Of a stretch of DNA of 64,000 nt, positions 10,758-58,286 are shown one piece after another. The stretch comes from Candidatus Omnitrophota bacterium (GTDB taxonomy: Bacteria > Omnitrophota > Gorgyraeia > 1-14-0-20-64-10): the NCBI GenBank assembly GCA_023248155.1, contig JAHFFE010000003.1:80042-144041 (forward strand), written 5' to 3'. Below the pieces are notes generated by a model, which searched no databases, had not been told where the DNA came from, and was given only the letters and a program-made list of their open reading frames with translations. Position 1 is the stretch's first letter. Each line of letters begins with the position of its first letter. The position numbers and the translations under genes are program-made.

Positions 10758-10780
10758 GGGTTGCTTCGTAGGTATTTCCA

Positions 10781-11828: not shown

Positions 11829-11889
11829 ACCCCGAGTGTAACTTGATTGAAATTTACCATAGCCGCCTAATCATTTACAAATGTTTTGT

Positions 11890-11918
11890 TTGACAATGCT
11901 TGAGCGGTCAAGTATAAT
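11890..11918 (+). promoter_or_regulatory. Consensus sigma70 promoter for the transposase (TTGACA-17nt-TATAAT), predicted leaderless transcript
   Basis: -35 TTGACA at 11890-11895, an exact 17-nt spacer, -10 TATAAT at 11913-11918. The ATG at 11925 lies 7 nt downstream of the -10, with no Shine-Dalgarno. Confidence 0.6.
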
Positions 11919-11924
11919 ACTAAT

Positions 11925-20186: not shown

Positions 20187-20187
20187 C

Positions 20188-39261: not shown

Positions 39262-39340
39262 CGGATCACCCAAAAACTGACTTTCAAGAGCCGTTTTAAT
39301 GGGTTATACTCAATCTTTAACCCAGAGGCTGACTTCCCCC

Positions 39341-44388: not shown

Positions 44389-45360
44389 ATGGCATCCATT
44401 CTGGTAACAGGCGGCGCAGGTTTTCTGGGTTCGTTCATTTGCGAGAAATTGCTCGCAATGGGGCATCAGGTCGTCGCATACGATATGTCGAACGGCGAAA
44501 AGATTGAGCACTTAATCGACAAGCCGGGCTTCCGGTTCGTGCAGGATTCGATCCTGAACTTCAGCTCCATGGAACGGGAGATTGATCGCGCCGATATCGT
44601 GGTCCATTTCGCGGCAATCGCCGATCCGAAACGGTATGTGCAGGAACCGTTGGTGACGATGGAAATCGATCTGCAGGGCGCCTTGAATGTTTTCAAGCTG
44701 GCCTCGAAAAAGAAAGCGAAGGTCTGCTTTGCTTCCACCTCCGAGATCTACGGAAAGAATCCGGCGATCCCGTGGAAAGAAGATGCCGAACGGGTGCTGG
44801 GCTCAACGCATATCAACCGGTGGTGCTATGGAACCGCCAAGGCCGCCGCCGAGCATTACTGCTATGCCTACGCGCATCAGGAAGGGATGCCGTTCGTCAT
44901 CTACCGGTTCTTTAATGTCTACGGCCCGCGGCTCGACGATCTCGGTTCCGGGCGCGTGCTTCCGATTTTCCTGAAGCAGTGTTTGCACGACGAACCGATT
45001 ACGATCCACGGTGACGGTCTGCAGACGCGCACGCTGGTTTACATTGAGGATGCCGTCGACTGCGTGGTTCGCGCAATCTTTAACGAAAAAGCAGTGGGCC
45101 AGGCGTTTAATATCGGAACCTCGCAGGAATTGAGCATGAAAGATCTCGCCTTAAAATTAAAAGAGGTCGGCGGATTCAAATCGGAAATCGTTTATGTTCC
45201 GCACAAGGAAGTATTCGGCGCCAGTTACGAGGATGTGCCGCGGCGCGTTCCGGATGTTTCAAAAGCCAAAAAACTTCTGGGTTGGGAAGCAACAACGACG
45301 CTGGAAGAAGGTCTTAAAAAGACAATCGCTTACTACAAGGAACAAATCGCGAACCGATGA
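44389..45360 (+). CDS. UDP-glucuronate oxidative decarboxylase, ArnA C-terminal-domain-like (UDP-4-keto-pentose forming)
   Basis: FVQDSILNF…ADIVVHFAAIADP…KVCFASTSEIYGK and YGTAKAAAE…FVIYRFFNVYGPRLDD closely track E. coli ArnA residues ~350-520 (FVEGDISIH…STSEVYGM…YSVSKQLLD…RPFNWMGPRLDN). Confidence 0.65.
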   Translation: MASILVTGGAGFLGSFICEKLLAMGHQVVAYDMSNGEKIEHLIDKPGFRFVQDSILNFSSMEREIDRADIVVHFAAIADPKRYVQEPLVTMEIDLQGALNVFKLASKKKAKVCFASTSEIYGKNPAIPWKEDAERVLGSTHINRWCYGTAKAAAEHYCYAYAHQEGMPFVIYRFFNVYGPRLDDLGSGRVLPIFLKQCLHDEPITIHGDGLQTRTLVYIEDAVDCVVRAIFNEKAVGQAFNIGTSQELSMKDLALKLKEVGGFKSEIVYVPHKEVFGASYEDVPRRVPDVSKAKKLLGWEATTTLEEGLKKTIAYYKEQIANR

Positions 45361-46115
45361 TTGAAAAACTGGATTGGGATACGCGCCATTTCGGTGTCCC
45401 GATGGGGCGGTTCAATTGGTCTGAGACCGGTCAGCCGCATACGGAATCAGTAGCAGCCGCAACGCAGCAGGCAAAACAGCTGGGACTGAAACAGTTGATG
45501 GCGCGCGCACACCCATCCGAGATGGAAAAAATCCACGCATTGGAAGCCGGCGGTTTTCGTCTCGTGGATACGCTGGTTACATTAACGATTGATTTGCGTA
45601 AAAATCCGCCGCCGTCGGCGAAGGATTCTTCCGTGCGAACCGCTCGCGCACAGGACCTTCCTGGGTTGACGGCCCTGGCGAAAACAGCGTTCGCCGACCG
45701 CTCGATCTGGCTGGACCGGTTTCACGCCGATCCGAAAATCCCGGAAGGGAAAGCCGACGCGCTGTACGAAGAATGGGTCCGTAACTCCGTTGCTCCGGCT
45801 TCAGCCGCCGCGTCGATGGCAGACCAGACATTCGTTTCGGAAATCGACGGAAAAATTGCCGGTTTTCTAACCTGCGTCCGCGGTTCCGAAACCGTTTACG
45901 GAAAAGTATCGCTCAACGCGGTTGACTCATCATTTCGGAAGAGAGGCATCTACCGGGCGATGATTGACCATGCGCTGGCCTGGTTTCTGCGTGAAAAGAG
46001 CCCTCTGGTCTCCGTAAGAACCAGTATTTTCAGCCATGCCGTTCAGCGCGCCTGGATCCGCATCGGCGCTGTCCCGTCAGATGTCGAGCACACCTTTCAC
46101 TGGTGGACCGACTGA
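45357..46115 (+). CDS. GNAT-family N-acetyltransferase, WecD (dTDP-fucosamine acetyltransferase)-like
   Basis: The N-terminal LDWDTRHFG resembles WecD (LTWENAFFG). A C-terminal acetyl-CoA-binding region is RKRGIYRAMIDHAL. Confidence 0.5.
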   Translation: MIEKLDWDTRHFGVPMGRFNWSETGQPHTESVAAATQQAKQLGLKQLMARAHPSEMEKIHALEAGGFRLVDTLVTLTIDLRKNPPPSAKDSSVRTARAQDLPGLTALAKTAFADRSIWLDRFHADPKIPEGKADALYEEWVRNSVAPASAAASMADQTFVSEIDGKIAGFLTCVRGSETVYGKVSLNAVDSSFRKRGIYRAMIDHALAWFLREKSPLVSVRTSIFSHAVQRAWIRIGAVPSDVEHTFHWWTD

Positions 46116-46118
46116 TTC

Positions 46119-47984
46119 GTGTGCGGCATTTGCGGAATCTTCGATCCCGATAAGATCAGCGACTCCTCAATTTCCTCTTTAATCCGGATGCGCGACCGGC
46201 TGCGCCTCCGCGGTCCCGATGATGAAGGGCTCTACCGCGATGAATCCGTCGCGCTGGGAATCCGCCGCTTAAGCGTGATTGATCTTAAAACCGGCCGTCA
46301 GCCGATTGCCAACGAAGATGACTCGGTCTGGGTGGTTCTCAACGGCGAAATCTACAATTACCGGGAACTGCGCCGCGATCTGGAACAAAAAGGCCACCGG
46401 TTCCGCACGCAGTCCGACACCGAAGTACTGGTCCATCTCTACGAAGAATCGGGAGAACGGTTGGTCGAATCGCTTCGCGGCATGTTCGCGTTTGCGCTTT
46501 GGGACAAACGCAAAAAAATGCTGATGCTGGCCCGCGACCGGTTCGGCATCAAACCTCTTTATTACGCGCAGCAGGGAAGCCGGCTGATTTTTTCTTCCGA
46601 ATTGCGCTCGCTGCTGCAGCATCCTGAAATTTCCCGGGAAACCGATCCGGATGCCGTTGATCTTTATCTGACGACCGGCTATATTCCATCGCCGCTTTCA
46701 ATCATCCGCGGAATTCAAAAAGTTCCGCCGGCAACGGTACTGACGGCCACCGCGCAAAAAATCGAACTTAAAAAATACTGGGCTCCCTCATTGCCGCAAC
46801 CGGATCTGAAATTGGATATTCCGGAACTCCAACAGCAGTTGAGCCGGCATCTGGCCGATTCGGTTGCTCTGCATCTGCGCAGCGACGTTCCAGTCGGCGT
46901 ATTGTTAAGCGGCGGACTCGATTCTTCGCTGATTCTTTCCGAAGTGGTGAAAGCATCCCAAAAACAGGTGACCGCGTTTACGATCGGCTTTGAAGAAGCC
47001 AGCTTCGACGAAACCGCGGCCGCCGCGCAGATTGCGCGCCATTTCGGGGTAGACCACCAGATTGAAACGATCGGAACCCGCGAACAGCTCGACCGCATTC
47101 CTGAAATCCTCGGCGCCTGCGATGAACCTTTGGCCGATTCGTCGGTAATCCCCACCTGGTTTTTAAGCCGGCTGGCCAAACGATCGGTCACCGTGGCGTT
47201 AAGCGGAGACGGCGGAGATGAGCTGTTCGGCGGATACCCCACCTATGCGGCACACCGGATCGCGCAGCGATTGGGTATTTTACCGCAACCGTTCTGGGCC
47301 GCGGCCCAATGGGCAGCGAACCGGCTGCCGGTATCGGATAAAAATTTCAGTTTTGATTTTATCGCCGGACAATTTTTACGCGGAGCGGGCCAGCCGCTGG
47401 TTCAGCGGCATTTCAGCTGGATGGGAATTTTTTCGGCGGACGAAAAAACAGCCTTAACAGGATCGGCGGGAGGGGCTTCAACCGCTTGGATTAAGAAACA
47501 ATCGGAAGAGCTGGCCGCATTTACTTTATCCGATCCGGCAGATGCCGCCGCCGGGCTCGATCAAAAGACTTATCTGCCGGATGACTTGCTGTTTAAAACC
47601 GACCGGCTCAGCATGCAGCACAGCCTGGAGCTGCGCGTTCCGCTGCTGGATCATCCGCTGGCTGAATTTGCCGGGACCATTCCGTCCCTGTTAAAAATCC
47701 AGGGAAGTTCCACGAAAATTTTGTTTCGCAAACTATTGGAAGAACGCATTCCAGGTTCGATTGCGCGTCATCCAAAAAAAGGATTCGGAGCGCCGGTGGC
47801 TGCCTGGCTGCGCGGGCCGCTGAAAGAATGGTCGGCCGATACGCTGGAAACCGCGCTGCACTCCAATAAATACGGGTGGAACAAAACCTATGTGCGAACA
47901 CTGCTGAAAGAACATGCGCAGGGCCGCCGCAACCATGCGCGGCGAATCTGGGCGCTGCTGGCGCTGGAGCAATGGCAATCATGA
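46119..47984 (+). CDS. Asparagine synthase-family glutamine amidotransferase (AsnB-like)
   Basis: N-terminal nucleophile (M)CGICGIF, and the synthetase-domain PP-loop SGGLDSS. GTG start. Confidence 0.85.
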   Translation: MCGICGIFDPDKISDSSISSLIRMRDRLRLRGPDDEGLYRDESVALGIRRLSVIDLKTGRQPIANEDDSVWVVLNGEIYNYRELRRDLEQKGHRFRTQSDTEVLVHLYEESGERLVESLRGMFAFALWDKRKKMLMLARDRFGIKPLYYAQQGSRLIFSSELRSLLQHPEISRETDPDAVDLYLTTGYIPSPLSIIRGIQKVPPATVLTATAQKIELKKYWAPSLPQPDLKLDIPELQQQLSRHLADSVALHLRSDVPVGVLLSGGLDSSLILSEVVKASQKQVTAFTIGFEEASFDETAAAAQIARHFGVDHQIETIGTREQLDRIPEILGACDEPLADSSVIPTWFLSRLAKRSVTVALSGDGGDELFGGYPTYAAHRIAQRLGILPQPFWAAAQWAANRLPVSDKNFSFDFIAGQFLRGAGQPLVQRHFSWMGIFSADEKTALTGSAGGASTAWIKKQSEELAAFTLSDPADAAAGLDQKTYLPDDLLFKTDRLSMQHSLELRVPLLDHPLAEFAGTIPSLLKIQGSSTKILFRKLLEERIPGSIARHPKKGFGAPVAAWLRGPLKEWSADTLETALHSNKYGWNKTYVRTLLKEHAQGRRNHARRIWALLALEQWQS

Positions 47985-48715
47985 GTGACGCGCGCAACAT
48001 CCAAAATGAGCAGGATCATTTCGATCAGGCTGCGCTTCGGTACCGATCTTCCTGGTGGGGGCAGAAAACGGCCGCGGGGCAGGTTCGTTTGCGCAAGCGG
48101 TATGCCCGGATTAATTCCGCGCTCGATCAAGCCGGCGCGAAAATAATTCTGGAGATCGGCTGCGGTTCCGGAATCCTGACCGAGGGAATCAGCCGGCCCG
48201 GGCGCCGGATATGGGCGCTCGATCTTTCGCAGGAGCTGCTGAGAATTGCGCGGGGGCGGCCGCTTTCCAATACGCTCTGGCTTCGTTCACTGGCCGACCG
48301 GCTGCCGTTTCCGGATCAATCATTCGACGCCGTCGTCGGAGACGGGATCCTGCACCACATTATTCCATTGGAGCCGGTGCTGGCTGACTTAAAGCGGGTT
48401 TTAAAACCATCCGGGTCCGGTTTCTTTTTCGAGCCGAACATGGCCAATCCGCAAATCTTCCTGGAACGAAAGATCGAGTGGATCCGGCGGCTGCATCAAA
48501 CGCCGGATGAAACCGCTTTTTTACGAGGTTCCATTCGAGCTCGACTTTTGAGATACTGGAAGCAGGTATCCGTCGAGCCGTTTGACTTTTTACACCCGTC
48601 TATTCCTCAGCCGCTGATCGGCATCGCGGAATCGCTCGGCGGAACACTGGAGCATTGTCCGGGAGTCCGGGAATTGGCCGGTTCTCTTCAAATTCAATTT
48701 AAGGAATCACGATGA
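47981..48715 (+). CDS. Class I SAM-dependent methyltransferase
   Basis: SAM motif I ILEIGCGSGIL and motif II FDAVVGDGILHH. The ATG overlaps the asnB-like stop (ATGA). Confidence 0.75.
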   Translation: MSDARNIQNEQDHFDQAALRYRSSWWGQKTAAGQVRLRKRYARINSALDQAGAKIILEIGCGSGILTEGISRPGRRIWALDLSQELLRIARGRPLSNTLWLRSLADRLPFPDQSFDAVVGDGILHHIIPLEPVLADLKRVLKPSGSGFFFEPNMANPQIFLERKIEWIRRLHQTPDETAFLRGSIRARLLRYWKQVSVEPFDFLHPSIPQPLIGIAESLGGTLEHCPGVRELAGSLQIQFKESR

Positions 48716-49692
48716 GTTCATTTTGGAAAGACAAGAAGGTGCTGGTGACCGGCGGTGCGGGGTTTATCGGAAGCTTCGCCACCGAACAACTGGTTGAGTC
48801 AGGCGCCCAGGTGACTGTGGTTTGCTACTCCGGAAAAGAAACGCCGGCCCGTCTTGCATCGGTAAAAGATTCCATTACGGTTTTGCATAAAGATTTACGG
48901 CGCAAAGAAGATTGCCGCGAGGCCCTCAAGGGAAACTCGATCGTGATCAACATGGCCGCGCGCGTCGCCGGTGTAGAATTTAACTCCAAGCATCCGGCCA
49001 CGATGCTGATGGAAAACGCCGTCATGGACATGAACCTTCTGGAAGCGGCGCGTGAAACAGGCGTGGAACGGTTTGAGGTGGTCAGCTCCGCCTGTGTTTA
49101 CCGCCGCAACTGCCTGATCCCGACACCGGAGAGCGAGGGGTTCATCGATCATCCGGAGCCGAGCAACTTCGGTTACGGATGGGCCAAGCGGATCGCTGAA
49201 GTGCAGGCGATGGCCTATGCCGAAGAGTATGGGATGAAAATCGGCATCGTCCGGCCCTACAATGCCTACGGTCCGCGCGATCATTTCGATCCGGCCATCT
49301 CCCATGTCATTGCCGCGCTGATCCGCCGTGTCTATGAGGGGGAAAATCCACTGAAAGTCTGGGGCAGCGGCGAGCAGACCCGAGCGTTTCTGTATGTTGA
49401 AGATTTCGCGCGCGGTGTTCTGGAAGGGGCCGAAAAATATCCGCAGGCCGATCCCGTCAATCTGGGAACCAGCGAAGAGGTGACTATCAAGGAACTGGTC
49501 CGGATGATCCTGGAGATTTCCGGGAAAAAACCGGAAGTGATTTTCGATACGACCAAGCCGGCCGGACAACCGCGCCGCAATTGCGACACGCGGAAGGCGG
49601 AAGAGAAGCTCGGCTTTAAACCCAAATTCTCTCTGCGCCAGGGACTCGAAAAAACAATCCGCTGGTACGAAAAGAACAAGGGTATCGCGTGA
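48712..49692 (+). CDS. GDP-L-fucose synthase-like NAD(P)-dependent epimerase/reductase (Fcl-like)
   Basis: [12 protein letters not shown], then MAARVAGVEFN…, VSSACVY, GYGWAKR and PYNAYGPRDHFDPAISHVIAALIRR parallel E. coli Fcl (AAKVGG…GSSCIYP…YAIAKI…[25 protein letters not shown]). Confidence 0.6.
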   Translation: MSSFWKDKKVLVTGGAGFIGSFATEQLVESGAQVTVVCYSGKETPARLASVKDSITVLHKDLRRKEDCREALKGNSIVINMAARVAGVEFNSKHPATMLMENAVMDMNLLEAARETGVERFEVVSSACVYRRNCLIPTPESEGFIDHPEPSNFGYGWAKRIAEVQAMAYAEEYGMKIGIVRPYNAYGPRDHFDPAISHVIAALIRRVYEGENPLKVWGSGEQTRAFLYVEDFARGVLEGAEKYPQADPVNLGTSEEVTIKELVRMILEISGKKPEVIFDTTKPAGQPRRNCDTRKAEEKLGFKPKFSLRQGLEKTIRWYEKNKGIA

Positions 49693-52600
49693 CACGATTC
49701 CTGCGCCAGCATGGACTGAATCTCTTATTTATTCTGCTGATCGGAATGATCCCGCTGCTCTGGTTCGGGCGCGGGGAACTGATCACCGGCGGCGATGTCG
49801 TCTATCCGCTGGATCCGGCCGGGTGGGTCTCCTTCCGGACGCATATGTGGAATTACCGGGTCAACGCCGGATTCGCGGCAGCCGTGAACGCCACGACGCT
49901 GATCTTTCACAGAATCCAGGCTTTCTTTGTTGGTCTGGGCTGCTCCGTACCGTGGGCACAGCGGTGGAGTTACGTATTCTGGAATCTGGCGATCTGCAGT
50001 TCCATCTACAGCCTTCTTTGGGTCACGCGGCCGGCTAAATCATCGGGGCGGCTTTATCTGGCAATCGGCATTTTACTTTACGCATTTAATCCATTTCTGT
50101 TTAACAGCTGGGAATCGGGCAAGGCCTCGATCCTTTCGGCTTTTTTCGCATTTCCGGCGATCCTCACTATTTTAATCGGCATTTTTCAGCGGCAGTGGCG
50201 GGTTTTGCCGTCATTGGCCTGCGTGGTGCCGGTGGCCATCGTGGCCGCGAGCATTGGCGCCGATCCTCCGGTTTGTGCGCTGTTACTGCTGCTGGTGGCG
50301 ATTTCGGTTCTTGTACTGGGCTGGCCCGGCAAAAACGAACCGAAACCGCTGCGGACGATATCACGCCTGATCTGGATTGGCATTTGGCTGATCGTTGTTT
50401 TACTGGCAGCCAGCAGTTCGTGGCTGATTCCTTACGGATGGGAATTGGCATTCAAAGCTAGCGCCTCAGCAGGATCCGGACTGGCCGTTTTTCAGATGGC
50501 CGACTGGCTGAAAGGGATCAGCACGCATACGAGCCTTTTTAATGTGTCCCGGCTTCAAGCCACCTGGGATTGGTACTACACCTGGAATAACGAACCGTAC
50601 ATTTCATACGCGGCACGTTATTTCAGCAATCCGTTTCTGATTGGCATCAGCATACTCTGGCCGTTACTGGCTTACGGCGCATTATTCGGCGTGCGCGACC
50701 GGGTCCTCTGGCTGTTCAGCATCCTGGCGCTGATCGGCACCTTCGGCGCGGCCGGCGCTCATCCGCCCAGCGGGGGAGTTTTCCTCTGGCTGGCCGATCA
50801 TTGTCCCGGATTTTTCGTTTTTCGCAGTCCGTACTATAAATTCGGAATTTTGGTTCCGCTCGCGTACGCCGTTCTGGTTCCGCGCGGATGGGAATGGATC
50901 AGCGCGCGTATTCAAAAGCCATCGAAGAAAATCGTGGGAATCGCGCTGCTGCTGTGCAATCTGGTTTACGCCTATCCGTTATTCAGCGGCGAAATCGTCT
51001 ATACGCACGAGAAACTGGCATCGATTCGGCTTAAAGTTCCCGGTTATATTTATCAGGTTAGTGACTGGCTCCAGCACGAAGCCGCTCCCGGGAAAATTTT
51101 ATCGCTGCCGCAGGAAGGCGCCGACATGTATACCTGGCGATACGGCTCGCTGGCGCATCTGTTGACGCTGATCTCCGACCGGGCTGTTTTTCACGGGATC
51201 GCCGACAACGAACCGGGCGGAAAAATACGGAACCTCTGCGTGCAAGCCGTTTATCAGGGGTTGACGCCGTACGCGGCCCATATGCTCGACTGGCTTGGCG
51301 TCCGCTATCTGTTGATCCGAAAAGACAGCTGGTATGATTTCTACGGTGACACCGATTCTCCCGCATGGATCGCCGGGCAGCTTCAGCACCAGCAGGGAAT
51401 AACTCCGGCGCGATCGATCGGTCCTTGGGAATTCTATACGGTAGAATCGCCCGCCCATAAACCGCTGATGATCCATTCGTCGTTGTCGGTCTGGTCCGGT
51501 TCCGCCGACGGGCTGTATGCCGCTTCGTATCCGGTCATCCGGCAATCACTGCAATCTCTTCTTTTACTGAACCGTCCGGAAAACAAAACAATTGTTGAAC
51601 AACTGAACGTTGGTTCTCCGGAATCACTGCGCTGGATTTTCTACTCCAGCAGTCCGGCCGACCTGGGCCTTGAGTTGGTTTCTTCCGGATTGCGCATCCC
51701 GTACGATTCAAAAAAACACCAGTGGGAATTTTCTATTAAAAATCCGGGGTATTACGAAATCTGGATCGTTCGTCCCGATGCGCCGGCCCGGCTCGATTTT
51801 TCAGCGCTGCTTCTGGATGAGCAGCAGCTGCTTCTGCCGGACGCCCATTCCGAATTCGCGAAAATTCCAAGTTTCTGCTGGATCCGCCTGACTCCCAAAT
51901 ATCTCATTCCGGGAAATCATCTGCTCCGGCCGCTGGAACCGACGTTAATGGATGAGATGCCGGGAATCGTGGCAGTGCCCCGGAACGACCTGCTGGAGTC
52001 GGTCCAGTTCTTCGCGAAATCAGTCGAAGCATCGCCGCATCCGTTAACCTATATTCAAAAAACAGAACCCTGCTTCGAGCGGCCGACACGGCCGATGGTT
52101 TCGGCCGTGGTCGCCCAGCCGTTCGGATTCGAACCGGGCGGTAAAACGATACAGGGGCATGGCAACGGATGGCAATGGCTTCATATCAACGCCGGATACC
52201 GCATCCATAATCAATCCAGCGAACCGGTCATTACCCATTTTCAGGCTGAAATCTTCGCGCCGCTGGATCGCACGCTGTATATGAATATGGACGGCCAGCT
52301 GATTAAACATTTCCGGTTAAAGGCAGGGACGGTGTTCCCGCTCATTTTTGACACGCTTTCGATTCCTCCCGGGGAACACAAGCTGACTTTTTATGTTTTG
52401 GAAGGCGGGTTTCTTCCTGACGGTATTTCGCCGGCCAATGCGACCGAAGCGGATTTGCTGACATTGGCGGTGCGCGCGCCCGGTTTCGATTCGGCCGATC
52501 TACAGGCCGATTTTCAAATCGGACGGAGCGGGGAGTACGCCGCTCATTTTTATCCGTTCCCTATTGCTGGAAATGGGCAGCTGGATCGCGGCAACCGGGT

Positions 52601-53117
52601 CGCCGATCTGGATGGGAAATCAATTTCTCTGAATTCAGAGGATGCCGCTTCTTCGGCATGGACCGCCGGACCGGTCCAACTGGAAAAAGGGGTCCATCAA
52701 ATACGGATTCCGCAGCAGGGATCGGAACGCTACTGGATTATTCTTCAGGAACAGCTGCCGGAAAAGCTGCCGGCAATGGATGCATCGGCCTGGCAATCGG
52801 ATGACCCGACTCGTTATCGGGCCGGTCCGCTTCCGGCCGATCCATCGATCCGCTTTCTGGTAACGCAGGATGGCTATGATCCTGCCTGGCGGGTAAAAAT
52901 GATTCCGGAGGAAAGAGCGGGGACCGCGCTCTCCGATCATTTTGAAGCGAACGGCTATTCCAATGCCTGGATTATCGATCCGACAGAGGAACCGGCGCGG
53001 ATTGAAGTCGATTATTTTCCGCAACAGTTATTCCGGATCGGAAGCGCGATTACAACGGCGGTCGCGGCCATTGCCATTTTTATCCTGCTGGCCGCGCTGG
53101 TGAAGAGGCCTCGATGA
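49689..53117 (+). CDS. Large GT-C-fold membrane glycosyltransferase, AftD/YfhO-like (paralog 3 of 3)
   Basis: 1142 aa. It has QATWDWYYTWNNEPYISYAARY and HPPSGGVFLWLADHCPGFFVFRSPYYKF. The C-terminus is GYDPAW…HFEANGYSNAW plus a TM anchor. Confidence 0.55.
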   Translation: MTRFLRQHGLNLLFILLIGMIPLLWFGRGELITGGDVVYPLDPAGWVSFRTHMWNYRVNAGFAAAVNATTLIFHRIQAFFVGLGCSVPWAQRWSYVFWNLAICSSIYSLLWVTRPAKSSGRLYLAIGILLYAFNPFLFNSWESGKASILSAFFAFPAILTILIGIFQRQWRVLPSLACVVPVAIVAASIGADPPVCALLLLLVAISVLVLGWPGKNEPKPLRTISRLIWIGIWLIVVLLAASSSWLIPYGWELAFKASASAGSGLAVFQMADWLKGISTHTSLFNVSRLQATWDWYYTWNNEPYISYAARYFSNPFLIGISILWPLLAYGALFGVRDRVLWLFSILALIGTFGAAGAHPPSGGVFLWLADHCPGFFVFRSPYYKFGILVPLAYAVLVPRGWEWISARIQKPSKKIVGIALLLCNLVYAYPLFSGEIVYTHEKLASIRLKVPGYIYQVSDWLQHEAAPGKILSLPQEGADMYTWRYGSLAHLLTLISDRAVFHGIADNEPGGKIRNLCVQAVYQGLTPYAAHMLDWLGVRYLLIRKDSWYDFYGDTDSPAWIAGQLQHQQGITPARSIGPWEFYTVESPAHKPLMIHSSLSVWSGSADGLYAASYPVIRQSLQSLLLLNRPENKTIVEQLNVGSPESLRWIFYSSSPADLGLELVSSGLRIPYDSKKHQWEFSIKNPGYYEIWIVRPDAPARLDFSALLLDEQQLLLPDAHSEFAKIPSFCWIRLTPKYLIPGNHLLRPLEPTLMDEMPGIVAVPRNDLLESVQFFAKSVEASPHPLTYIQKTEPCFERPTRPMVSAVVAQPFGFEPGGKTIQGHGNGWQWLHINAGYRIHNQSSEPVITHFQAEIFAPLDRTLYMNMDGQLIKHFRLKAGTVFPLIFDTLSIPPGEHKLTFYVLEGGFLPDGISPANATEADLLTLAVRAPGFDSADLQADFQIGRSGEYAAHFYPFPIAGNGQLDRGNRVADLDGKSISLNSEDAASSAWTAGPVQLEKGVHQIRIPQQGSERYWIILQEQLPEKLPAMDASAWQSDDPTRYRAGPLPADPSIRFLVTQDGYDPAWRVKMIPEERAGTALSDHFEANGYSNAWIIDPTEEPARIEVDYFPQQLFRIGSAITTAVAAIAIFILLAALVKRPR

Positions 53118-54355
53118 CTTTAAATCGAATACGTATAACAGTGATTGCGCTCATTGGCTGGCTGCTGCTGCAATGGACTGTTTCGTTCACCTTTAATCCG
53201 CAAGAGTTCAGCCTTGATCTGAGTATGATATCCAACCAGTCTCATCTGAAAGAAAACTGGAAAATTATCCCATCGCTCGCTTTCAAGGGAGTTATGGATG
53301 TTTCTGTTTCGCAGGCCCCCGGCGCGATTGATTTTTCCTTAAAAGAAGCGGACACACAGTATGTCCGGATTAAGGCCCGCCTTTTGGATCCAAAACAGGA
53401 ATTATCCATTTCCGTAAATGGACATCCTTGGAAAAATCTGCGCATCGGCCGAAAACCGGGCGTCCAGAAATGGTCGGGAACCGTTCCACCCGACATGCTC
53501 AACCAGGGCAAGAACCGGATTTTTTTTCAGTCGAGCACGCCGGCGCCGATCTTTATTGAAAAAGTCAGCATCCGGAATTATCGCTCCGATCCGGACATCT
53601 CCCGGTTCTTTATCGGGCTGGATCAGTCATTCCGCGGAAAACGATGGCTCTCCATCCAGTGGAATTCTTTTCCGTGGCTGCTGATATTGGCGCTGTTCCT
53701 TTGCGGCGTGGAACTCATTACAACCTACTTCTGGAACCATATTTACCGCGTACGAAAAGAAGTTTCGACCCAGCAAATTATCTGGACCGGGTTCATAGTA
53801 CCGCTTTTCCTATTTTTTGTTTTTATCTGCATTTCCTCGTTTACGCCCTATCTGGTTCTTCTGACAATGCCGACCTACTGGATGATCTGGGGGGCAGGGA
53901 TAGTCGCCGTTCATCTGATCTGCGCTTTGATAGGAATGATCCGCCGCTGGCTGGAACAGCTGGCTTTTTTCCTGGAGCAATCGTTCCTATCATCATCCAA
54001 GGTTTTTTCAAGCCGCCTCCATCGTTGGGCAGGATCGCTGCTTTTTCTCGGAAAATGGCTGTTTAAACGCCTTAAGCTGCTCGTTCAAAAAATCACACTC
54101 AATCCCCCGGGGGTCTACCGGATCTACGCGGGCAGTATGATTTTTGCCGCGGCCTGTCTGATTTTTCAGGCGCTTTTCTATCTTCTTCTGGTGGCTGATC
54201 CCGGAAAAATCGTGGACGCGCACGGAGCCTATCCGTTCCTGCGAAAAACCGCGGAAATGGTCGCCGACCTGGGAACGCTGCTGCTTCCGATTCTTGTTTT
54301 TACCAGTTTTCTCTCAAGAAATCGCCCTCAGTCCGATAAAAATTCGCTACAATAG
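53114..54355 (+). CDS. Membrane partner protein of GT-C paralog 3 (paralog of 35330-36556)
   Basis: 413 aa with the same architecture as the partner of paralog 2. Its extracytoplasmic domain contains …SISVNGHPWKNLRIG…. Confidence 0.5.
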   Translation: MTLNRIRITVIALIGWLLLQWTVSFTFNPQEFSLDLSMISNQSHLKENWKIIPSLAFKGVMDVSVSQAPGAIDFSLKEADTQYVRIKARLLDPKQELSISVNGHPWKNLRIGRKPGVQKWSGTVPPDMLNQGKNRIFFQSSTPAPIFIEKVSIRNYRSDPDISRFFIGLDQSFRGKRWLSIQWNSFPWLLILALFLCGVELITTYFWNHIYRVRKEVSTQQIIWTGFIVPLFLFFVFICISSFTPYLVLLTMPTYWMIWGAGIVAVHLICALIGMIRRWLEQLAFFLEQSFLSSSKVFSSRLHRWAGSLLFLGKWLFKRLKLLVQKITLNPPGVYRIYAGSMIFAAACLIFQALFYLLLVADPGKIVDAHGAYPFLRKTAEMVADLGTLLLPILVFTSFLSRNRPQSDKNSLQ

Positions 54356-54360
54356 AAGGC

Positions 54361-55308
54361 ATGTCTTTAGACCTTTCGCTGATCATTCCCGTCTATAACG
54401 AGCGGGACAATCTGGAAAAACTGCTGGCCGAGCTTCAGTCTGCCCTTCAACCGACTGGATGGACTCATGAAATCATCCTGGTCGACGATGCCAGCACCGA
54501 TGGAAGCACCGAACTGCTCAAAACACTGCAGAACCGTTATCCGGCACTGCGGCTGCTGCGGCTCATGCGGCACAGCGGCCAAACGCCGGCGCTGGCCGCC
54601 GGTTTCGATGCGGCGCGCGGGGAAGTGATCGTTACGATGGACGCCGATTTACAAAATGATCCGCGCGATATTCCGTTACTGGTGAACACGCTGCAGTCCG
54701 GCTACGATGTTGTCAGCGGCTGGAGAAAAGACCGCAAAGATTCCTGGCTGCGCTGTTTTATCTCGCGAATGGCCAATCGGATTTTGCGCCGCGCAACCGA
54801 GGTTGATCTGCACGATTTCGGGTGCAGTCTAAAAGCCTACCGCCGCTCGGTACTGCAGGGAATCGTTCCGTACGGGGAAATGCACCGGATTCTGCCGGCC
54901 TATCTGGCGGCGCTCGGATCACGAATTTCAGAGAAAGAAGTGCGCCACCGTCCGCGATTAAGCGGAAAATCAAAATACGGATTCGGCCGGACGCTGAAGG
55001 TGCCGTTTGATATCCTGGCCGTTTCGTTCTTGCTTCGCTATTCACGCACACCGATGCGCGCGTTGGGCGGTCTGGGGCTGTTGGGCCTGACCGGCGCCGC
55101 ATTGATAACGCTCTATGTTACGGTGCGCGCGCTGTTCTGGGGAGGCATCTGGGTCAGCCCGCTGCTGTTCGTCTCCACCATCCTTGCGCTGTTTGGGTTG
55201 CAATGCATCGCTTTGGGAATGTTCGCGGAAATGCTGCTCTGGATGCAGGCTACCGATCCGAAAAACCGGACTTATTCAGCAGAAGAGCTAAAACATGCGT
55301 CGAATTGA
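54361..55308 (+). CDS. Polyprenyl-phosphate sugar synthase, ArnC/GtrB-like GT2
   Basis: The N-terminal GT2 has LSLIIPVYNE, VDDASTDGS and DADLQND. It also has the two C-terminal TM helices characteristic of ArnC/GtrB. Confidence 0.75.
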   Translation: MSLDLSLIIPVYNERDNLEKLLAELQSALQPTGWTHEIILVDDASTDGSTELLKTLQNRYPALRLLRLMRHSGQTPALAAGFDAARGEVIVTMDADLQNDPRDIPLLVNTLQSGYDVVSGWRKDRKDSWLRCFISRMANRILRRATEVDLHDFGCSLKAYRRSVLQGIVPYGEMHRILPAYLAALGSRISEKEVRHRPRLSGKSKYGFGRTLKVPFDILAVSFLLRYSRTPMRALGGLGLLGLTGAALITLYVTVRALFWGGIWVSPLLFVSTILALFGLQCIALGMFAEMLLWMQATDPKNRTYSAEELKHASN

Positions 55309-56491
55309 ATTGGGATTTTTGCAGATCAGCGATACGGCAAAAGCCAATGTGGCGGAAGCGCTCAATAACAACCGGCTTTCCACCGGAAAATTCATTCAGG
55401 AATTTGAGCGGCTGTTTGCCGCGGCGCATGGATGCAAGCATGCGATCTTCTGCAACAGCGGAACCAGCGCTCTGCAGATCGCATTAGCCGCGCTCAAAGA
55501 AAAATACAATTGGGCGGATGGCGATGAGGTCCTGGTGCCGGCGCTCACATTCATCGCCAGCAGCAACATCATTCTACAAAACAACCTGAAACCGGTTTTC
55601 GTCGACGCCGATCCGGTCTATTACAACATCGATCCGCTTCAAATTGAACGGCACATCACGCCGCGCACGCGCGCCATAATCCCGGTTCATCTGTTTGGAC
55701 AGTCCTGCGACATGGATCCGATCCGCGCCATCGCCAAGAAACGGAATTTGAAGATCCTCGAGGATTCCTGTGAAACCATGTTCGCCCGTTATAAAAACGA
55801 ATGGGTCGGTTCGATGGGGGACCTGGCCTGTTTTTCAACCTATGTCGCGCACCTGCTGGTGACCGGCGTAGGCGGCCTGGTCACCACCAATTCTGACGAG
55901 CTGGCGCTGATGTCGCGCAGCATCATGGCGCACGGCCGGGATTCCATTTATCTGACAATCGACGACGATGATAATTTGAAAGACAATCAGGCGCTGCGCC
56001 GCATCATCGAGCGCCGCTTCTCGTTCGTCCGCATGGGCTACAGTTTCCGGGGAACCGAGCTGGAAGGGGCGCTCGGTGTCGCCGCGATGCAAAGCAAAGA
56101 CGCCATGATCGCGCGCCGCAGGGAAAACGGCCGGATCCTGACTGAAAAATTAAAGTCGTTGGAAGAGTACTTGCAGCTTCCCAAAATTCTTCCGGGAGCC
56201 GAGCATTCGTTTATGATGTTCCCGGTCGTGCTCAAGCCCGGCCTGGACCGCGGCGCTTTCCTGGATTATCTGGAAACCAACGGCATCGAAACCCGCTACC
56301 TGATGCCGCTGTTAAGCCAGCCTTACTACCGGGAGCGGTTCGGTCCGATCGAAAACGATTATCCGGCCGCCAAGCATTTGAGCGGGCAAGGTTTTTACAT
56401 CGGCTGCCACCAGGGATTAAAAACCGAAGACCTCGATTACATCGCGCATGTCTTTGCCGAATATTTCAGGCATGCCAAACTTCCTGCCTAA
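55295..56491 (+). CDS. DegT-family PLP-dependent aminotransferase, ArnB-like
   Basis: AIFCNSGTSALQIAL, VPALTFIASSN. Lies directly downstream of the arnC-like gene. Confidence 0.75.
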   Translation: MRRIELGFLQISDTAKANVAEALNNNRLSTGKFIQEFERLFAAAHGCKHAIFCNSGTSALQIALAALKEKYNWADGDEVLVPALTFIASSNIILQNNLKPVFVDADPVYYNIDPLQIERHITPRTRAIIPVHLFGQSCDMDPIRAIAKKRNLKILEDSCETMFARYKNEWVGSMGDLACFSTYVAHLLVTGVGGLVTTNSDELALMSRSIMAHGRDSIYLTIDDDDNLKDNQALRRIIERRFSFVRMGYSFRGTELEGALGVAAMQSKDAMIARRRENGRILTEKLKSLEEYLQLPKILPGAEHSFMMFPVVLKPGLDRGAFLDYLETNGIETRYLMPLLSQPYYRERFGPIENDYPAAKHLSGQGFYIGCHQGLKTEDLDYIAHVFAEYFRHAKLPA

Positions 56492-58286
56492 AATCGGGAC
56501 TCGCAAGTTTTTCGCAGGAATTCTTTTATTCATTTTCTTCCTGATTTTTTATGCGTTCTGGCTCTGGCCGCTGCCGATGGAAATGAGCCGCCGCATTTTG
56601 TATCTCACCAACCCCGGTGATGCGTTTAATTCCATATGGTCCACCTGGTGGTGGAAACATGCACATGAATTCGGCCAATCATTCTCCGATTGCCGCGTGG
56701 TTGGTTATCCGCTGGGCGTTCAACTTGGATTAAGCCCGGCGCAGCCGCTGCTGGAACCGTTTCTGCGCGGTTCGGCTTTTTTCCTTTCTGAAATCAGTGC
56801 GTACAATCTCTGGATTCTGCTGAGCGGCGCTCTCTCCGCGCTTTCGATGACCTGGCTGGCCTGGCTGCTGACGCGGGATCTGCCATCATCGGTGATTGCA
56901 GGGCTGGGGTTTCTCTGCGCGCCGTACCGGGCCGCCCATCTGCCGCAGATCGGACTGGCAGCGACTCATTGGATTCCGCTGACGCTGGCGACTTATTGGA
57001 ATGTAACTCAATCCGTCCGGCCGGCACGATGGGGGATTGGTCTGGGCATCGCGCTGGCCTGCACAGCGCTCTCCAATTATTATTACGGTTATGTGGCCGG
57101 AATAGTGCTGCTGCTGGCGCTGGTTTCTGATGGACTGCTGCGGATGCGCGCAGAACCGGCCGCTTATAAAAGAACGGTGCGCGCGGCGGCAACGGGAATA
57201 GTTCTGGCGGTTGTCATCGTCGGCGCGTTCGTGGCAGCCGCTCCTCAGGGTCTTTCACAAATATCAAAAGGACTTGCCGGTTATGCCCAGAAAGATCTTT
57301 TTGTTTTCTCGGCCAAACCGTGGGACTATCTGCTGCCGCCGGCGAACCATCCCTGGCTGGGCCGGTGGACGGGGCCGTTTATCCAATCCCATTTATACGG
57401 AAGTAATCTGACCGAACAAACGCTCTATCTGGGCTGGACATTACTGTTCTGCGCAATAATTCTGTTGTGGCTGCGCGCACGCAATAAACTTCCGGCAGAG
57501 CAGCAGACTGCCGTCGCCTGGTTGTCGCTGATCGCGCTGGGAGGAATTCTCTGGTCATTTCCTCCGTTTATCCCCATCGGGCCATTCGAAGTGATCAACA
57601 ACGAAATCATCTGCCGGTGGAAGTGGCCTTTTCCTTCTTATCTCATGCACCGGATTCTTCCGATGTTCCGCGTCTACAGCCGGTTCGGCATTATTCCGTT
57701 GATCGCGCTCTGCGCGCTGCTGGCCGTCGGGCTGGCTCAGCTTCGAAAAAAACAGGGGATGGTTCGCCGATGGGCTCTGCCCGCACTGGTCGCTCTCGTC
57801 ATGCTGGCGGAATTCAGCCTTCGGTTAACTACGTTTGACGCATCGGCCGTTCCGCCGGTGTACGAATGGCTGAAAAACCGGCCGGAAACCGGAGCCATTG
57901 TGGAATATCCGTGGCGCGAATCAACCCATTATGAAAATTACCGCTACCAGTTTTTTCAGCGGATTCACCGCCGGCCGATGCTCAATGGCGGCTGGCCTGG
58001 TTCTATGTCGGATAAAATCAGAATTCAATGCCGCAACATTGAGGATCCTGCCGTCGTTCCGATTTTGGAAAAATGGGGCGCGCGGTTCATCATCGTTCAC
58101 GCGGATGCGTATCGCTGGGACGAAGACATTCTGCCTTCTTCTTTTTCAGCGTTAGGGAAGTCATTCCCGATCAAGCCCAAACGGCTGCAGGAACAGCTCC
58201 CGCCGCCATCCAAAAACAGCAATCGCGCTCTGCGTTTAATCGCTGAATTTGGCGAGACCTGGGTTTACGAACCGGCTATCGAATGA
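56448..58286 (+). CDS. Polytopic membrane protein with C-terminal extracytoplasmic domain; candidate GT-C glycosyltransferase (ArnT-position)
   Basis: 612 aa. The N-terminal ~400 aa are highly hydrophobic and a soluble domain follows. It comes after arnC-like and arnB-like genes. No motif confirmation. Confidence 0.35.
   Translation: MSLPNISGMPNFLPKIGTRKFFAGILLFIFFLIFYAFWLWPLPMEMSRRILYLTNPGDAFNSIWSTWWWKHAHEFGQSFSDCRVVGYPLGVQLGLSPAQPLLEPFLRGSAFFLSEISAYNLWILLSGALSALSMTWLAWLLTRDLPSSVIAGLGFLCAPYRAAHLPQIGLAATHWIPLTLATYWNVTQSVRPARWGIGLGIALACTALSNYYYGYVAGIVLLLALVSDGLLRMRAEPAAYKRTVRAAATGIVLAVVIVGAFVAAAPQGLSQISKGLAGYAQKDLFVFSAKPWDYLLPPANHPWLGRWTGPFIQSHLYGSNLTEQTLYLGWTLLFCAIILLWLRARNKLPAEQQTAVAWLSLIALGGILWSFPPFIPIGPFEVINNEIICRWKWPFPSYLMHRILPMFRVYSRFGIIPLIALCALLAVGLAQLRKKQGMVRRWALPALVALVMLAEFSLRLTTFDASAVPPVYEWLKNRPETGAIVEYPWRESTHYENYRYQFFQRIHRRPMLNGGWPGSMSDKIRIQCRNIEDPAVVPILEKWGARFIIVHADAYRWDEDILPSSFSALGKSFPIKPKRLQEQLPPPSKNSNRALRLIAEFGETWVYEPAIE

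Follow-up and report, generated by a model that had tools for sequence, protein, structure and literature searches.

The window, by which we mean the whole 64,000-nt stretch analysed, holds a glycan operon of about 50 kb. All the genes named in an earlier note on this DNA lie in it on a single strand (+), where that note had placed them. Table 1 lists the genes, which are referred to below by their first nucleotide. The gene at 12842, previously read as ugd, agrees with that reading in its Pfam domains and its NCBIfam matches (TuaD 507 bits; NDP-sugar dehydrogenase subfamily 442 bits, above cutoff). RmlA (14146) and RmlB (14880, exceeding its NCBIfam cutoff) lie downstream of it, and the second 6-dehydrogenase, 17726, matches the UDP-ManNAc dehydrogenase models at 304 and 262 bits and TviB at 205 bits, all below cutoff.

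Table 1. Sugar-nucleotide, transferase and membrane-protein genes of the operon (window positions)
Position	Strand	Feature	Basis
12842..14149	+	Ugd, UDP-glucose 6-dehydrogenase (Ugd/TuaD-like), UDP-GlcA supply	three Pfam UDPG_MGDP_dh domains
16759..17745	+	NDP-hexose 4,6-dehydratase-like SDR (Gmd/LegB-like)	GDP_Man_Dehyd 9.5e-88; NCBIfam gmd 201 bits, below cutoff
17726..19054	+	second nucleotide-sugar 6-dehydrogenase, UDP-HexNAc dehydrogenase-like	NCBIfam
19038..20186	+	DegT sugar aminotransferase	DegT 7.5e-120; Lys kept in FSFFPTKNL
20143..21123	+	bona fide UDP-xylose synthase (UXS)	TSEVYG and YDEAK motifs; identity; tree
22405..23160	+	second polyprenyl-P-type GT2	ArnC 81, PgfS 73, PpgS 65 bits
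30683..32197	+	ArnT-fold GT-C glycosyltransferase, family mem504	AF2 model and Foldseek
38581..39261	+	third polyprenyl-P-type GT2 (AglJ/PpgS-like)	AglJ 114, PpgS 91 bits
44389..45360	+	SDR*, stand-alone UDP-uronic acid C4-oxidase/decarboxylase-like SDR	motifs, NCBIfam, tree, neighbourhoods
45357..46115	+	WecD-like GNAT	full-length alignment to WecD PRK10975, 70 bits, E 2.5e-19, below cutoff
46119..47984	+	AsnB-type glutamine amidotransferase	Asn_synthase and GATase domains; TIGR03108 561 bits
47876..48715	+	class I SAM methyltransferase	Methyltransf_11/25
48712..49692	+	GDP-L-fucose synthase (Fcl)/ColC-like SDR	NCBIfam Fcl 195 bits, below cutoff
49689..53117	+	large polytopic membrane protein, paralogous to 27555 and 32179 (AftD-like GT-C)	~8 TM segments; no Pfam match
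53114..54355	+	413-aa membrane protein, related to 35330	~6 TM segments; no Pfam/NCBIfam match
54361..55308	+	ArnC/GtrB-like polyprenyl-phosphate sugar synthase, GT2	two C-terminal TM helices, segments at 234-290
55295..56491	+	His-type DegT enzyme, probable PMP-dependent sugar 3-dehydratase (ColD-like)	motif alignment
56448..58286	+	GT-C fold glycosyltransferase, rare family	AF2 pLDDT 84.6; Foldseek

The extended SDR encoded by 44389 has TSEIYG (T117-S118-E119), Y147xxxK151 and R214, all invariant across its clade, and the catalytic T-S-E and YxxxK described in the earlier note are indeed present. The strong similarity to ArnA described there is not: identity to E. coli ArnA is 28-29% (149 bits), and human UXS1 scores higher (195 bits, ~37-40% identity; top PDB score). 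Identity to UXS is 37-38%, to a Bacillus UXNAcS-like enzyme 38% and to a U4kpxs 30%. Among NCBIfam models U4kpxs is best at 211 bits (cutoff 294), with ArnA at 167 bits, also below cutoff, RmlB and LegB at 133-135 bits and gmd at 27 bits. Of the nearest characterised enzymes, nearly all decarboxylate UDP-uronic acids (UXS1, UAXS, ArnA, U4kpxs). Two insertions and the motifs IAxPxxY and RWxY, missing from UXS, are common to 44389, ArnA and U4kpxs. Phylogenetic placement, set beforehand as the test that could refute the assignment, put 44389 outside UXS and the epimerases: in a NJ tree its clade stands alone, apart from UXS, with bootstrap 99, while its grouping with ArnA (bootstrap 70) could be long-branch attraction. 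It is 20143 that nests within the UXS clade (bootstrap 100; human UXS1 is 54% and a Rhizobium UXS 52% identical to it), so that redundancy of the two enzymes is unlikely. 44389 heads a distinct, uncharacterised clade, here called SDR*, and we propose that it releases UDP-4-keto-pentose, although release versus reduction to xylose is not legible from the sequence. GDP-mannose 4,6-dehydratase is reported to have a T-S-E motif too, and the motif alone is therefore no proof of decarboxylation. 44389 could also act on UDP-GlcNAcA supplied by 17726 instead of on UDP-GlcA.

We surveyed 43 loci carrying SDR* and scored the genes within three of it. An aminotransferase, N-acyltransferase or methyltransferase lies within this distance in 32 loci. 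N-acetyltransferases of two unrelated folds do so in 26, mostly adjacent to SDR*: 45357-type GNAT homologues in 17 loci (again mostly adjacent), and PglD-like LbH acetyltransferases, standing in for the GNAT, in nine others. No RmlB-type gene was found in these neighbourhoods. The order of two PMT_2 GT-Cs, ArnB-like, ArnC-like and SDR* recurs in L093, L103, L115 and L123 (one PMT_2 GT-C is visible in L123, whose contig ends early), and a PglD-like LbH acetyltransferase follows SDR* in all of these but L115, whose contig stops at SDR*. In these four loci the ArnB-like proteins score 344-360 bits to E. coli ArnB and the ArnC-like proteins 307-311 bits. Three further loci (L105, L112, L116) have the order SDR*-GNAT-aminotransferase and one (L005) aminotransferase-SDR*-GNAT; about nine have the GNAT-SDR* pair with no aminotransferase nearby. 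Every SDR*-linked aminotransferase in other loci carries the lysine and is ArnB-like (320-360 bits). Thus ArnB-like, WecD-like or PglD-like, ArnC-like GT2 and ArnT-family or ArnT-fold GT-C genes adjoin SDR* on many unrelated contigs, and these neighbourhoods make an Ara4N-like pathway, with N-acetylation replacing N-formylation, well supported for the SDR* clade. The core of the scheme first put forward, a stand-alone ArnA-type decarboxylase with an N-acetyltransferase in place of the formyl cycle and a lipid-linked donor for GT-C enzymes, is strongly supported for the clade, but its gene assignments in this window (55295, 56448) were partly wrong.

In the window 45357 shares 4 nt with the end of 44389, and the WecD-like GNAT previously placed directly after the decarboxylase gene is matched over its full length by PRK10975; we propose it as the N-acetyltransferase of a nucleotide-linked 4-amino sugar. 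Homologues of formyltransferase, ArnD, ArnT, ArnE and ArnF were found neither by Pfam on the ORFs (47/47), nor by phmmer on the ORF set, nor by tblastn in six frames (best E 0.4), in agreement with the formyl cycle having been described as missing. A deacetylase was identified neither in the window nor in the examined SDR* loci, and the acetyl group may therefore stay on the final sugar. The following gene, 46119, probably amidates a carboxyl group, e.g., of a uronic acid, and genes of its type also stand beside SDR*-GNAT in L004, L095, L103, L108 and L109. L004 is a 73%-identical relative that shows synteny with the block 44389-58286 as far as the 54361 homologue, where that locus ends; its 1158-aa orthologue matches 49689, 27555 and 32179, the last of which scores 31 bits to GT-C_AftD, above cutoff.

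The reading of 54361 as an ArnC/GtrB-like synthase is consistent with a 291-aa alignment to E. coli ArnC at 34% identity, a PRK10714 score of 190 bits (below cutoff) and its C-terminal TM helices. Its nearest relatives (277-288 bits) adjoin GNAT-SDR* in L108 and L109; the sugar that it loads is ambiguous because it adjoins 55295. Orthologues of 22405 occur near mem504-SDR* in L097, a locus that, like the window, has UXS as well as SDR*, and in L107. The mem504 family of 30683 has no Pfam model, and not one of the 62 homologues carries a Pfam domain. The AF2 model of 30683 (pLDDT 91.4) has ArnT 5f15 as its top Foldseek match (E 5.6e-7, TM 0.53), and its homologues directly adjoin SDR* in nine loci. 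The protein that had been put in the ArnT position, 56448, is polytopic with a GT-C fold (Foldseek STT3 8e-8, AftD 1e-6, ArnT 6e-5), and this part of the description stands. It has only 20 homologues, some with DUF6311 or YfhO and with D58 invariant, and none is linked to SDR* in other loci. Genetically, the membrane enzyme that goes with the SDR* clade is 30683 and not 56448; the latter more likely serves a deoxy-sugar branch.

Neither the 64 kb nor the 4.6 kb that follow contain the ArnB-like aminotransferase family seen with SDR* elsewhere. The ArnB-like aminotransferase proposed at 55295 is not borne out: the protein has a DegT fold, but His replaces the Schiff-base Lys (FSTYVAHLL versus FSFHAIKNI in ArnB). 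In alignments with E1 and the 9wvy dehydratase this His falls on theirs, and the protein has their insertion, though E1's Cys motif is missing. His occurs in 106 of 123 motif matches from the 150 best representatives of the family. The top NCBIfam match is RfbH; ColD and E1 score only 149-176 bits, and perosamine synthase scores higher (215 bits). Some homologues carry a fused polyprenyl-P-type GT2 domain (P0204, P0284, P0292) and others a fused Fcl-like or RmlD-like SDR (P0213, P0218, P0338), the SDR domains in P0213 and P0218 being weakly similar to 48712. We consider 55295 a probable PMP-dependent sugar 3-dehydratase, with 48712 as its candidate epimerase/reductase partner and 16759 as a possible source of its 4-keto-6-deoxyhexose. 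The sole DegT sugar aminotransferase with the lysine in the window is 19038, which is also the top match of E. coli ArnB there (34% identity). By its scores (WecE-type 239 bits, the best; PseC 231; ArnB 218) it is a candidate 4-aminotransferase for the keto-pentose and/or dTDP-4-keto-6-deoxyglucose; it sits beside UXS and RmlA/RmlB, 25 kb upstream of 44389, and could belong to the route of another sugar.

We see about an even chance that the region encodes parts of at least two nucleotide-sugar branches, an amino-pentose and a deoxy sugar, feeding periplasmic GT-C glycosyltransferases; the catalytic steps of both are all inferred. In the first branch, UDP-GlcA from Ugd would be oxidised at C4 and decarboxylated by 44389, which, unlike UXS 20143, would release UDP-4-keto-pentose. 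A PLP aminotransferase, with 19038 as the only candidate in the window, would give UDP-4-amino-4-deoxy-pentose. N-acetylation by 45357 would then supply the thermodynamic pull that formylation gives in the Arn pathway. Loading onto polyprenyl phosphate would be the task of 54361, or possibly of 22405, and transfer to the acceptor that of 30683. In the second branch, a 4,6-dehydratase (16759 or 14880), the 3-dehydratase 55295 and the reductase 48712 would make a colitose-like deoxy sugar, probably lipid-loaded too and then used by 56448. The cell-surface sugar cluster is probably LPS-associated, and its product is probably an N-acetylated amino-pentose, made by a variant of the polymyxin-resistance lipid A modification pathway.

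It is unlikely, in our estimate, that 44389 is instead a second UXS/UXNAcS-type decarboxylase making UDP-xylose or UDP-XylNAc, with the GNAT belonging to an RmlA-RmlB-19038 route to dTDP-Fuc4NAc/Qui4NAc and no amino-pentose formed. The PDB match to UXS1, the identity to the Bacillus enzyme, the HexNAc-type dehydrogenase 17726, the presence of RmlA and RmlB, and the WecE- and WecD-type best families of 19038 and the GNAT would all fit. A genuine UXS is already there, however, and the N-acetyltransferases by SDR*, often with ArnB-, ArnC- and ArnT-type genes, are never accompanied by an RmlB-type gene. Distinctly less probable is a role of 44389 as 4,6-dehydratase, its T-S-E being like that reported for GMD, on the way to a 4-acetamido-4,6-dideoxyhexose (bacillosamine- or viosamine-like) and not to a pentose. 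Dehydratase, DegT aminotransferase and PglD- or WecD-like acetyltransferase are the standard layout for such sugars, which the neighbourhoods fit, and the RmlB and LegB models still score 133-135 bits; but the top family and PDB matches of 44389 are decarboxylases, the gmd model gives only 27 bits, it has ArnA-type motifs and indels, the accompanying aminotransferases and GT2s are closest to ArnB and ArnC (~310 bits) specifically, and the GT-Cs by SDR* are PMT_2/ArnT-like.

The scheme as first written, in which the roles of ArnC, ArnB and ArnT fall to 54361, 55295 and 56448 in one pathway with 44389 and 45357 and the His-type 55295 transaminates, we regard as very improbable. ColD-type enzymes are reported to regenerate PMP by a transamination half-reaction, the GT-C fold of 56448 and the 54361 relatives in L108 and L109 are compatible with it, and the L004 synteny also favours it, though only to the 54361 homologue, any 55295 and 56448 equivalents falling beyond the end of L004. 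Against it stand the family-wide His and the dehydratase-type alignment and insertion of 55295, the uniformly Lys-bearing, ArnB-like aminotransferases of other SDR* loci, and the SDR*-linked GT-C there, which is of the 30683 type and never a 56448 homologue.

Compared with known systems, the amino-pentose branch resembles Arn of E. coli and Salmonella (PmrHFIJKLM; lipid A L-Ara4N) in its Ugd, C4-oxidative decarboxylation, 4-amination, N-acylation, ArnC-type loading and GT-C transfer, and related loci retain the ArnB-ArnC-decarboxylase order with PMT_2 (ArnT-family) GT-Cs. It differs in a stand-alone decarboxylase only ~28% identical to the ArnA C-terminal domain, in N-acylation by a WecD-like GNAT or PglD-like LbH enzyme, and in a GT-C with the ArnT fold but without detectable ArnT sequence similarity. 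Like UXS, Ralstonia-type U4kpxs (PRK11908) and Bacillus UXNAcS, 44389 belongs to the extended SDRs and has T-S-E and YxxxK, yet it lies in a clade apart from them. 55295 has the DegT fold, Schiff-base-position His and insertion of ColD (GDP-4-keto-6-deoxymannose 3-dehydratase) and E1/RfbH (CDP-4-keto-6-deoxyglucose 3-dehydrase), and, as in the ColD pathway, genes for a 4,6-dehydratase and an Fcl/ColC-like SDR accompany it in the cluster. An arrangement like that of 55295, with a polyprenyl-P GT2 on one side, a GT-C on the other and GT2-fused homologues, was not seen for ColD or E1 among the data examined. The pairing of a polyprenyl-P sugar synthase with a GT-C recalls the three-component systems (GtrA/GtrB/GtrC; CsbB/YfhO, whose YfhO domain recurs in some 56448 homologues; Francisella FlmF2/NaxD/FlmK; Bordetella LgmABC), but those load hexosamines directly from UDP-HexNAc and not a decarboxylated amino-pentose, and neither a small flippase gene nor a deacetylase gene turned up in the window. 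For acetyl instead of formyl, the nearest precedent is the use of N-acetylated, lipid-linked amino sugars as donors in Francisella and Bordetella. Four genes of the operon had escaped the earlier note: UXS 20143, the ArnT-fold GT-C 30683 and the polyprenyl-P-type GT2s 22405 and 38581.

An earlier note on this DNA had proposed an Ara4N-like amino-pentose pathway without the formyl cycle, and all the genes it listed are present. They belong to a single plus-strand array of about 47 genes that runs across the window (see the table). The E. coli K-12 Arn proteins were used as probes against the window ORF set and in six-frame tblastn. ArnC matched 54361 at 34% identity, ArnB matched 19038 (34%) better than 55295 (32%), and the C-terminal domain of ArnA matched 44389 at 28% identity only, so the strong similarity to ArnA claimed for 44389 was not borne out. 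The ArnA formyltransferase domain, ArnD, ArnT, ArnE and ArnF had no match in either search (best E 0.4). The proposed absence of the formyl cycle stands, because probes for the formyltransferase domain and ArnD matched nothing in the window. The low-GC stretch upstream of ugd is possibly an insertion scar or island boundary where the glycan cluster starts.

Features of the window, by position (Pfam/NCBIfam, assignment by these libraries)
Position	Strand	Feature	Basis or remark
	+	DnaJ, AccD, two GGDEF proteins, LptD_2-like protein	Housekeeping genes opening the window
5030-7695		Two diguanylate cyclases (GAF-GGDEF, then GGDEF), then 769-aa LptD_2-like protein	Just upstream of glycan cluster
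10000-12752		IS1-like transposase fragment in low-GC stretch (0.42 vs ~0.54)	Immediately upstream of ugd
12842 to window end	+	Glycan-biosynthesis operon	Continuous
12842		Ugd	Pfam/NCBIfam
20143-21123		UXS	
23182-24711		B12-binding radical SAM enzyme	Within glycan cluster
27555-30680		Membrane protein	
30683-32197		Membrane protein, 504 aa	
32179-35328		Membrane protein	
39299-41131		NodU/CmcH-type carbamoyltransferase	Within glycan cluster
44389		Extended SDR	Pfam/NCBIfam
45357		GNAT	Pfam/NCBIfam; sub-threshold WecD match, full-length
46119		AsnB-type amidotransferase	Pfam/NCBIfam
47876		Methyltransferase	Pfam/NCBIfam
48712		Fcl-like SDR	Pfam/NCBIfam
49689-53117		Membrane protein	No Pfam domain
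53114		Membrane protein	No Pfam domain
54361		ArnC-like GT2	Pfam/NCBIfam
55295		DegT-fold protein	Pfam/NCBIfam
56448		Membrane protein	No Pfam domain

The 44389 product is a single-domain protein of 323 aa with the motifs TSEIYG, YGTAK and QTR. No formyltransferase is fused or adjacent to it, and no frame of the window has one. ArnA residues T432-S433-E434, Y463, K467 and R619 are matched by T117-S118-E119, Y147, K151 and R214, all invariant in the clade of 44389. The T-S-E triad has also been reported in GDP-mannose 4,6-dehydratase. Arg214 was rejected as a decarboxylase marker; it is not discriminating because non-decarboxylase SDRs of the alignment (RmlB-like, Gmd-like and GalE-like) have Arg too. 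Among the NCBIfam models, 44389 reaches 210.6 bits to U4kpxs PRK11908 (Ralstonia-type bifunctional UDP-4-keto-pentose/UDP-xylose synthase), below the cutoff of 294, and 167 bits to ArnA PRK08125, below the cutoff of 777. Its best PDB matches are human UXS1 (195 bits), a Thermotoga GalE-type epimerase (160), UAXS (152) and ArnA (140).

The placement of 44389 was examined in a neighbour-joining tree (200 bootstraps) with references from annotated records: E. coli ArnA, Sulfuricella U4kpxs, Rhizobium UXS, a Streptomyces homologue, human UXS1, TM0509, and a B. thuringiensis enzyme in a UXNAcS-type operon (GT2-dehydrogenase-SDR-GT2). Together with its metagenomic relatives 44389 forms a clade of its own (bootstrap 99), with 37-38% identity to UXS and UXNAcS-like enzymes and about 28-30% to ArnA/U4kpxs. 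It does not fall inside the ArnA clade in this tree; the 44389 clade is weakly sister to ArnA plus U4kpxs (support 70). The UXS clade (bootstrap 100) includes 20143 and excludes 44389, a placement by which the amino-pentose proposal of the earlier note could have failed and did not. In the alignment 44389 and ArnA/U4kpxs share the motifs IAxPxxY and RWxY and two insertions, which are partly present in UXNAcS-like enzymes and missing from UXS. Since the locus holds an ordinary UXS (20143) and 44389 belongs to a separate clade, 44389 is something else. In the proposed pathway it would release UDP-4-keto-pentose and NADH rather than reduce the intermediate to UDP-xylose. Omnitrophota MAGs supply nearly all of its closest homologues, and Deltaproteobacteria a few. 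The UXS, whose gene the earlier note did not mention, has the motifs TSEVYG and YDEAK and 54% identity to human UXS1; its gene directly follows 17726 (a HexNAc-type dehydrogenase) and 19038 (an aminotransferase), and this dehydrogenase-aminotransferase-decarboxylase trio is Arn-like in layout.

The neighbourhoods of 44389-type SDRs were compared in other contigs. A first contig search with the clade alignment picked generic SDR peptides (GxGxxG, RFFNVYGP), and the resulting relatives (L013-L092, at most 43% identity) were left out of the synteny. Metagenome contigs were searched with a clade-specific DNA pattern for YGPxxDDLGxGRV, which gave 40 loci, 40/40 with a clade member; three more from exact look-up made 43. 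Each locus ORF was classified by its phmmer matches to the full set of window proteins, to the Arn proteins of E. coli and to a few proteins from the loci, with Pfam for unknowns. In 32 of the 43 loci a gene for an aminotransferase, N-acyltransferase or methyltransferase is no more than three genes away from the SDR. An N-acetyltransferase is found at this distance in 26, and the remaining loci are mostly on contigs that end early. Homologues of the WecD-like GNAT 45357 occur within three genes, mostly adjacent, in 17 loci. In four loci (L093, L103, L115 and L123) two GT-Cs of PMT_2, the Pfam family of ArnT (one in L123, at a contig end), are followed by an ArnB-like aminotransferase, an ArnC-like GT2 and then the SDR; the aminotransferases score 344-360 bits and the GT2s 307-311 bits to their E. 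coli counterparts ArnB and ArnC. A PglD-like LbH N-acetyltransferase follows the SDR in L093, L103 and L123, while the L115 contig ends inside the SDR gene. The arnB-arnC-arnA order of E. coli is thus kept in these four loci, with an acetyltransferase in place of the formyltransferase. Linkage to ArnB-, ArnC- and ArnT-type genes is present there, whereas the window itself has only the ArnC-like and GT-C components.

Compact cassettes were also observed: SDR-GNAT-aminotransferase in L105, L112 and L116, aminotransferase-SDR-GNAT in L005, and a variant with a methyltransferase, SDR-methyltransferase-aminotransferase, in L094 and L120. The aminotransferases linked to the SDR group in a single ArnB-like family: they score 320-385 bits against one another and against ArnB, versus 115-200 bits against the two DegT proteins of the window; the exception is the L108 aminotransferase, equidistant from all four references. 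GNAT and LbH acetyltransferases of the types found here are typical of enzymes acetylating the 4-amino group of nucleotide sugars. The strongest argument comes from two unrelated acetyltransferase folds occupying the same slot beside the SDR, which suggests that the product of the SDR gains an amino group at C4 by transamination and that this amino group is then acylated. Some GNAT-SDR pairs are isolated, and Pfam analysis of their flanks found unrelated genes and no hidden aminotransferase. One such pair (L121, Ga0307423_1004690, 2526-6316) is located between a DM9-repeat protein and an EF-hand protein, a context that may be non-bacterial.

In the window the acetyltransferase position is taken by 45357, residues 2-250 of which align to positions 7-229 of the 232-position WecD model (70 bits vs a cutoff of 219). 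The 54361 product has a GT2 catalytic domain and two C-terminal TM helices and scores 190 bits to PRK10714 (cutoff 529). By its sequence it is ArnC-like, as had been proposed, and not an ArnC equivalog. The sugar that it loads is ambiguous: adjacency and gene fusions tie it to 55295, and the neighbourhoods of its orthologues tie it to the GNAT-SDR pair. The GT2s most like 54361 (277-288 bits) are found with AsnB beside GNAT-SDR in L108 and L109.

The 55295 product, which has a DegT fold, had been taken for an ArnB-like aminotransferase. Its Schiff-base position was read from a MAFFT alignment and from all of its phmmer alignments with aminotransferases in the PDB. The motif is FSFHAIKNI in ArnB (K188), FSFFGNKIITTGEGG in perosamine synthase (K186) and FSTYVAHLLVTGVGG in 55295, which has His at the Lys position in all alignments to these and other aminotransferases. 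This His aligns with the His of the PMP-dependent 3-dehydratases E1 (ypaHH) and 9wvy (yagHH), and the aminotransferase assignment was rejected on these grounds. An insertion of about 23 residues in E1 and 9wvy is also found in 55295, and its best NCBIfam match is RfbH. The [2Fe-2S] cysteine motif of E1 is absent from 55295 (YLTIDDDDNLK vs YCAPGCDNTCKK in E1), which therefore would be ColD-like rather than E1-like. A ColD-like 3-dehydratase is the most economical reading of the sequence. The enzyme would act with a 4,6-dehydratase (16759 or RmlB 14880) and the Fcl/ColC-like 48712, and the deoxy sugar would then be loaded on a lipid. Among the DegT proteins of the window 19038 alone has the lysine; its gene lies between those of the HexNAc-type dehydrogenase and UXS. 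A DegT-fold gene should thus be checked for the catalytic lysine before it is annotated as an aminotransferase.

The histidine is a property of the family. When 1.84 billion cluster representatives were searched with 55295, the Schiff-base motif was found 123 times in the best 150 matches: 106 have His, 15 have Lys, and Cys and Gln occur once each. Representatives more than about 40% identical to 55295 have His, with the exceptions of P0221 (Cys), P0227 (Gln) and P0310 (Lys). Several homologues are fusions: P0204 joins an ArnC-like GT2, a middle region (methyltransferase-like by eye) and a His-type DegT domain; P0284 and P0292 combine the latter with a polyprenyl-P-type GT2; and in P0213 and P0218 (Fcl-like) and P0338 (RmlD-like) an SDR is joined to it. 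In P0211 the His-type DegT domain is fused to a GT4. These fusions suggest an undescribed lipid-linked deoxy-sugar pathway.

Two membrane proteins compete for the role of ArnT. Neither 56448, to which the earlier note had assigned it, nor 30683, outside the locus drawn there, showed PF13231 membership or ArnT similarity by Pfam, phmmer or tblastn with E. coli ArnT. The models of both have a GT-C fold, with Foldseek probability 1.0 to ArnT, STT3, AftD and DPY19. The AF2 model of 56448 (pLDDT 84.6) also matches AftA at probability 1.0, and on this model the protein is a GT-C. It has about 20 homologues, some annotated as DUF6311 or YfhO, and they adjoin GT2s, Ugd, small EamA proteins and other large membrane proteins. 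In the loci examined they never occur beside a 44389-type SDR, and 56448 was for this reason set aside as the counterpart of ArnT in the amino-pentose branch. The model of 30683 (pLDDT 91.4) has ArnT 5f15 as its top structural match (E 5.6e-7, TM 0.53); none of its approximately 62 homologues has a Pfam domain. The better candidate is 30683, preferred because its homologues are directly beside the SDR in nine loci (L095, L097, L107-L109, L112, L116, L120 and L131), so the ArnT role probably belongs to this gene. Members of its family are nearly always next to a 44389-type SDR. The ArnT-fold 30683 is flanked by AftD-like paralogues: 27555, 32179 and 49689 encode three paralogous membrane proteins of 1040-1140 aa, of which 32179 alone reaches the GT-C_AftD Pfam threshold. 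At L134 6925-7728, two 124-aa EamA/TMEM234 proteins beside a 56448-type GT-C, a GT2 and Ugd resemble the ArnE/ArnF flippase pair; no such pair was found within the window.

Taken together, an amino-pentose route with acetylation instead of formylation that feeds GT-C enzymes, the catalytic steps of which we infer, is well supported for the protein family and plausible for the window. This part of the original proposal survives; the aminotransferase gene was wrong, and at least part of the 54361-58286 triad probably serves a separate deoxy-sugar branch. We tentatively propose, at somewhat less than an even chance, a widespread Arn counterpart in Omnitrophota and several other uncultured lineages, in which the 44389-type SDR and a GNAT or LbH acetyltransferase lead to UDP-4-acetamido-4-deoxy-pentose, which passes to polyprenyl phosphate and by a 30683-type GT-C probably onto LPS. 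An N-acetyltransferase of either fold would replace the formyl/deformyl cycle beside a stand-alone decarboxylase, and the acetylated sugar, once loaded on polyprenyl phosphate, would be installed by the ArnT-fold family of 30683, which had not been recognised before. In a stronger version the His-type 55295 would also act on the keto-pentose to give a 3-deoxy amino-pentose. Resistance to polymyxin and cationic peptides arises mainly through modification of lipid A with L-Ara4N, and the formylation and deformylation steps of Arn are believed to be required to drive an unfavourable transamination. If the proposal is true, a natural version with acetylation and no deformylase would indicate that the Arn chemistry has a modular character. 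The bacterial glycome would gain a new amino-pentose, and three unannotated families (those of the 44389 SDR, of the 30683 GT-C and of the His-type DegT proteins with GT2 fusions) would gain a function. The pathway would also provide a first handle on Omnitrophota cell-envelope chemistry. The searched literature, with most subscription journals outside its coverage, held no report of 4-acetamido-4-deoxy-pentose or of such a pathway variant, and nothing relevant on PDB entries 8VR2, 8VR3 and 8VR5.

Farther along the contig, shortly past the window end, are genes for a WaaL/Wzy_C-like protein, a GT9 heptosyltransferase and a PEP-mutase fusion; the glycan cluster is therefore probably LPS-associated. 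The fusion is a 481-aa ORF (L135 14626-16068, some 4 kb beyond the end of the window), by eye a PEP mutase fused to a nucleotidyltransferase, downstream of the WaaL/Wzy_C-like gene, the heptosyltransferase and a methyltransferase. If this reading by eye is right, it would indicate phosphonate decoration. The carbamoyltransferase 39299, present in two copies in the 73%-identical syntenic relative L004, implies O-carbamoylated glycan residues. The radical SAM enzyme 23182 may C-methylate or otherwise modify a sugar, and its type recurs in L108, L120, L123 and L133, near modules of the 30683 family with the SDR and near 56448 homologues.
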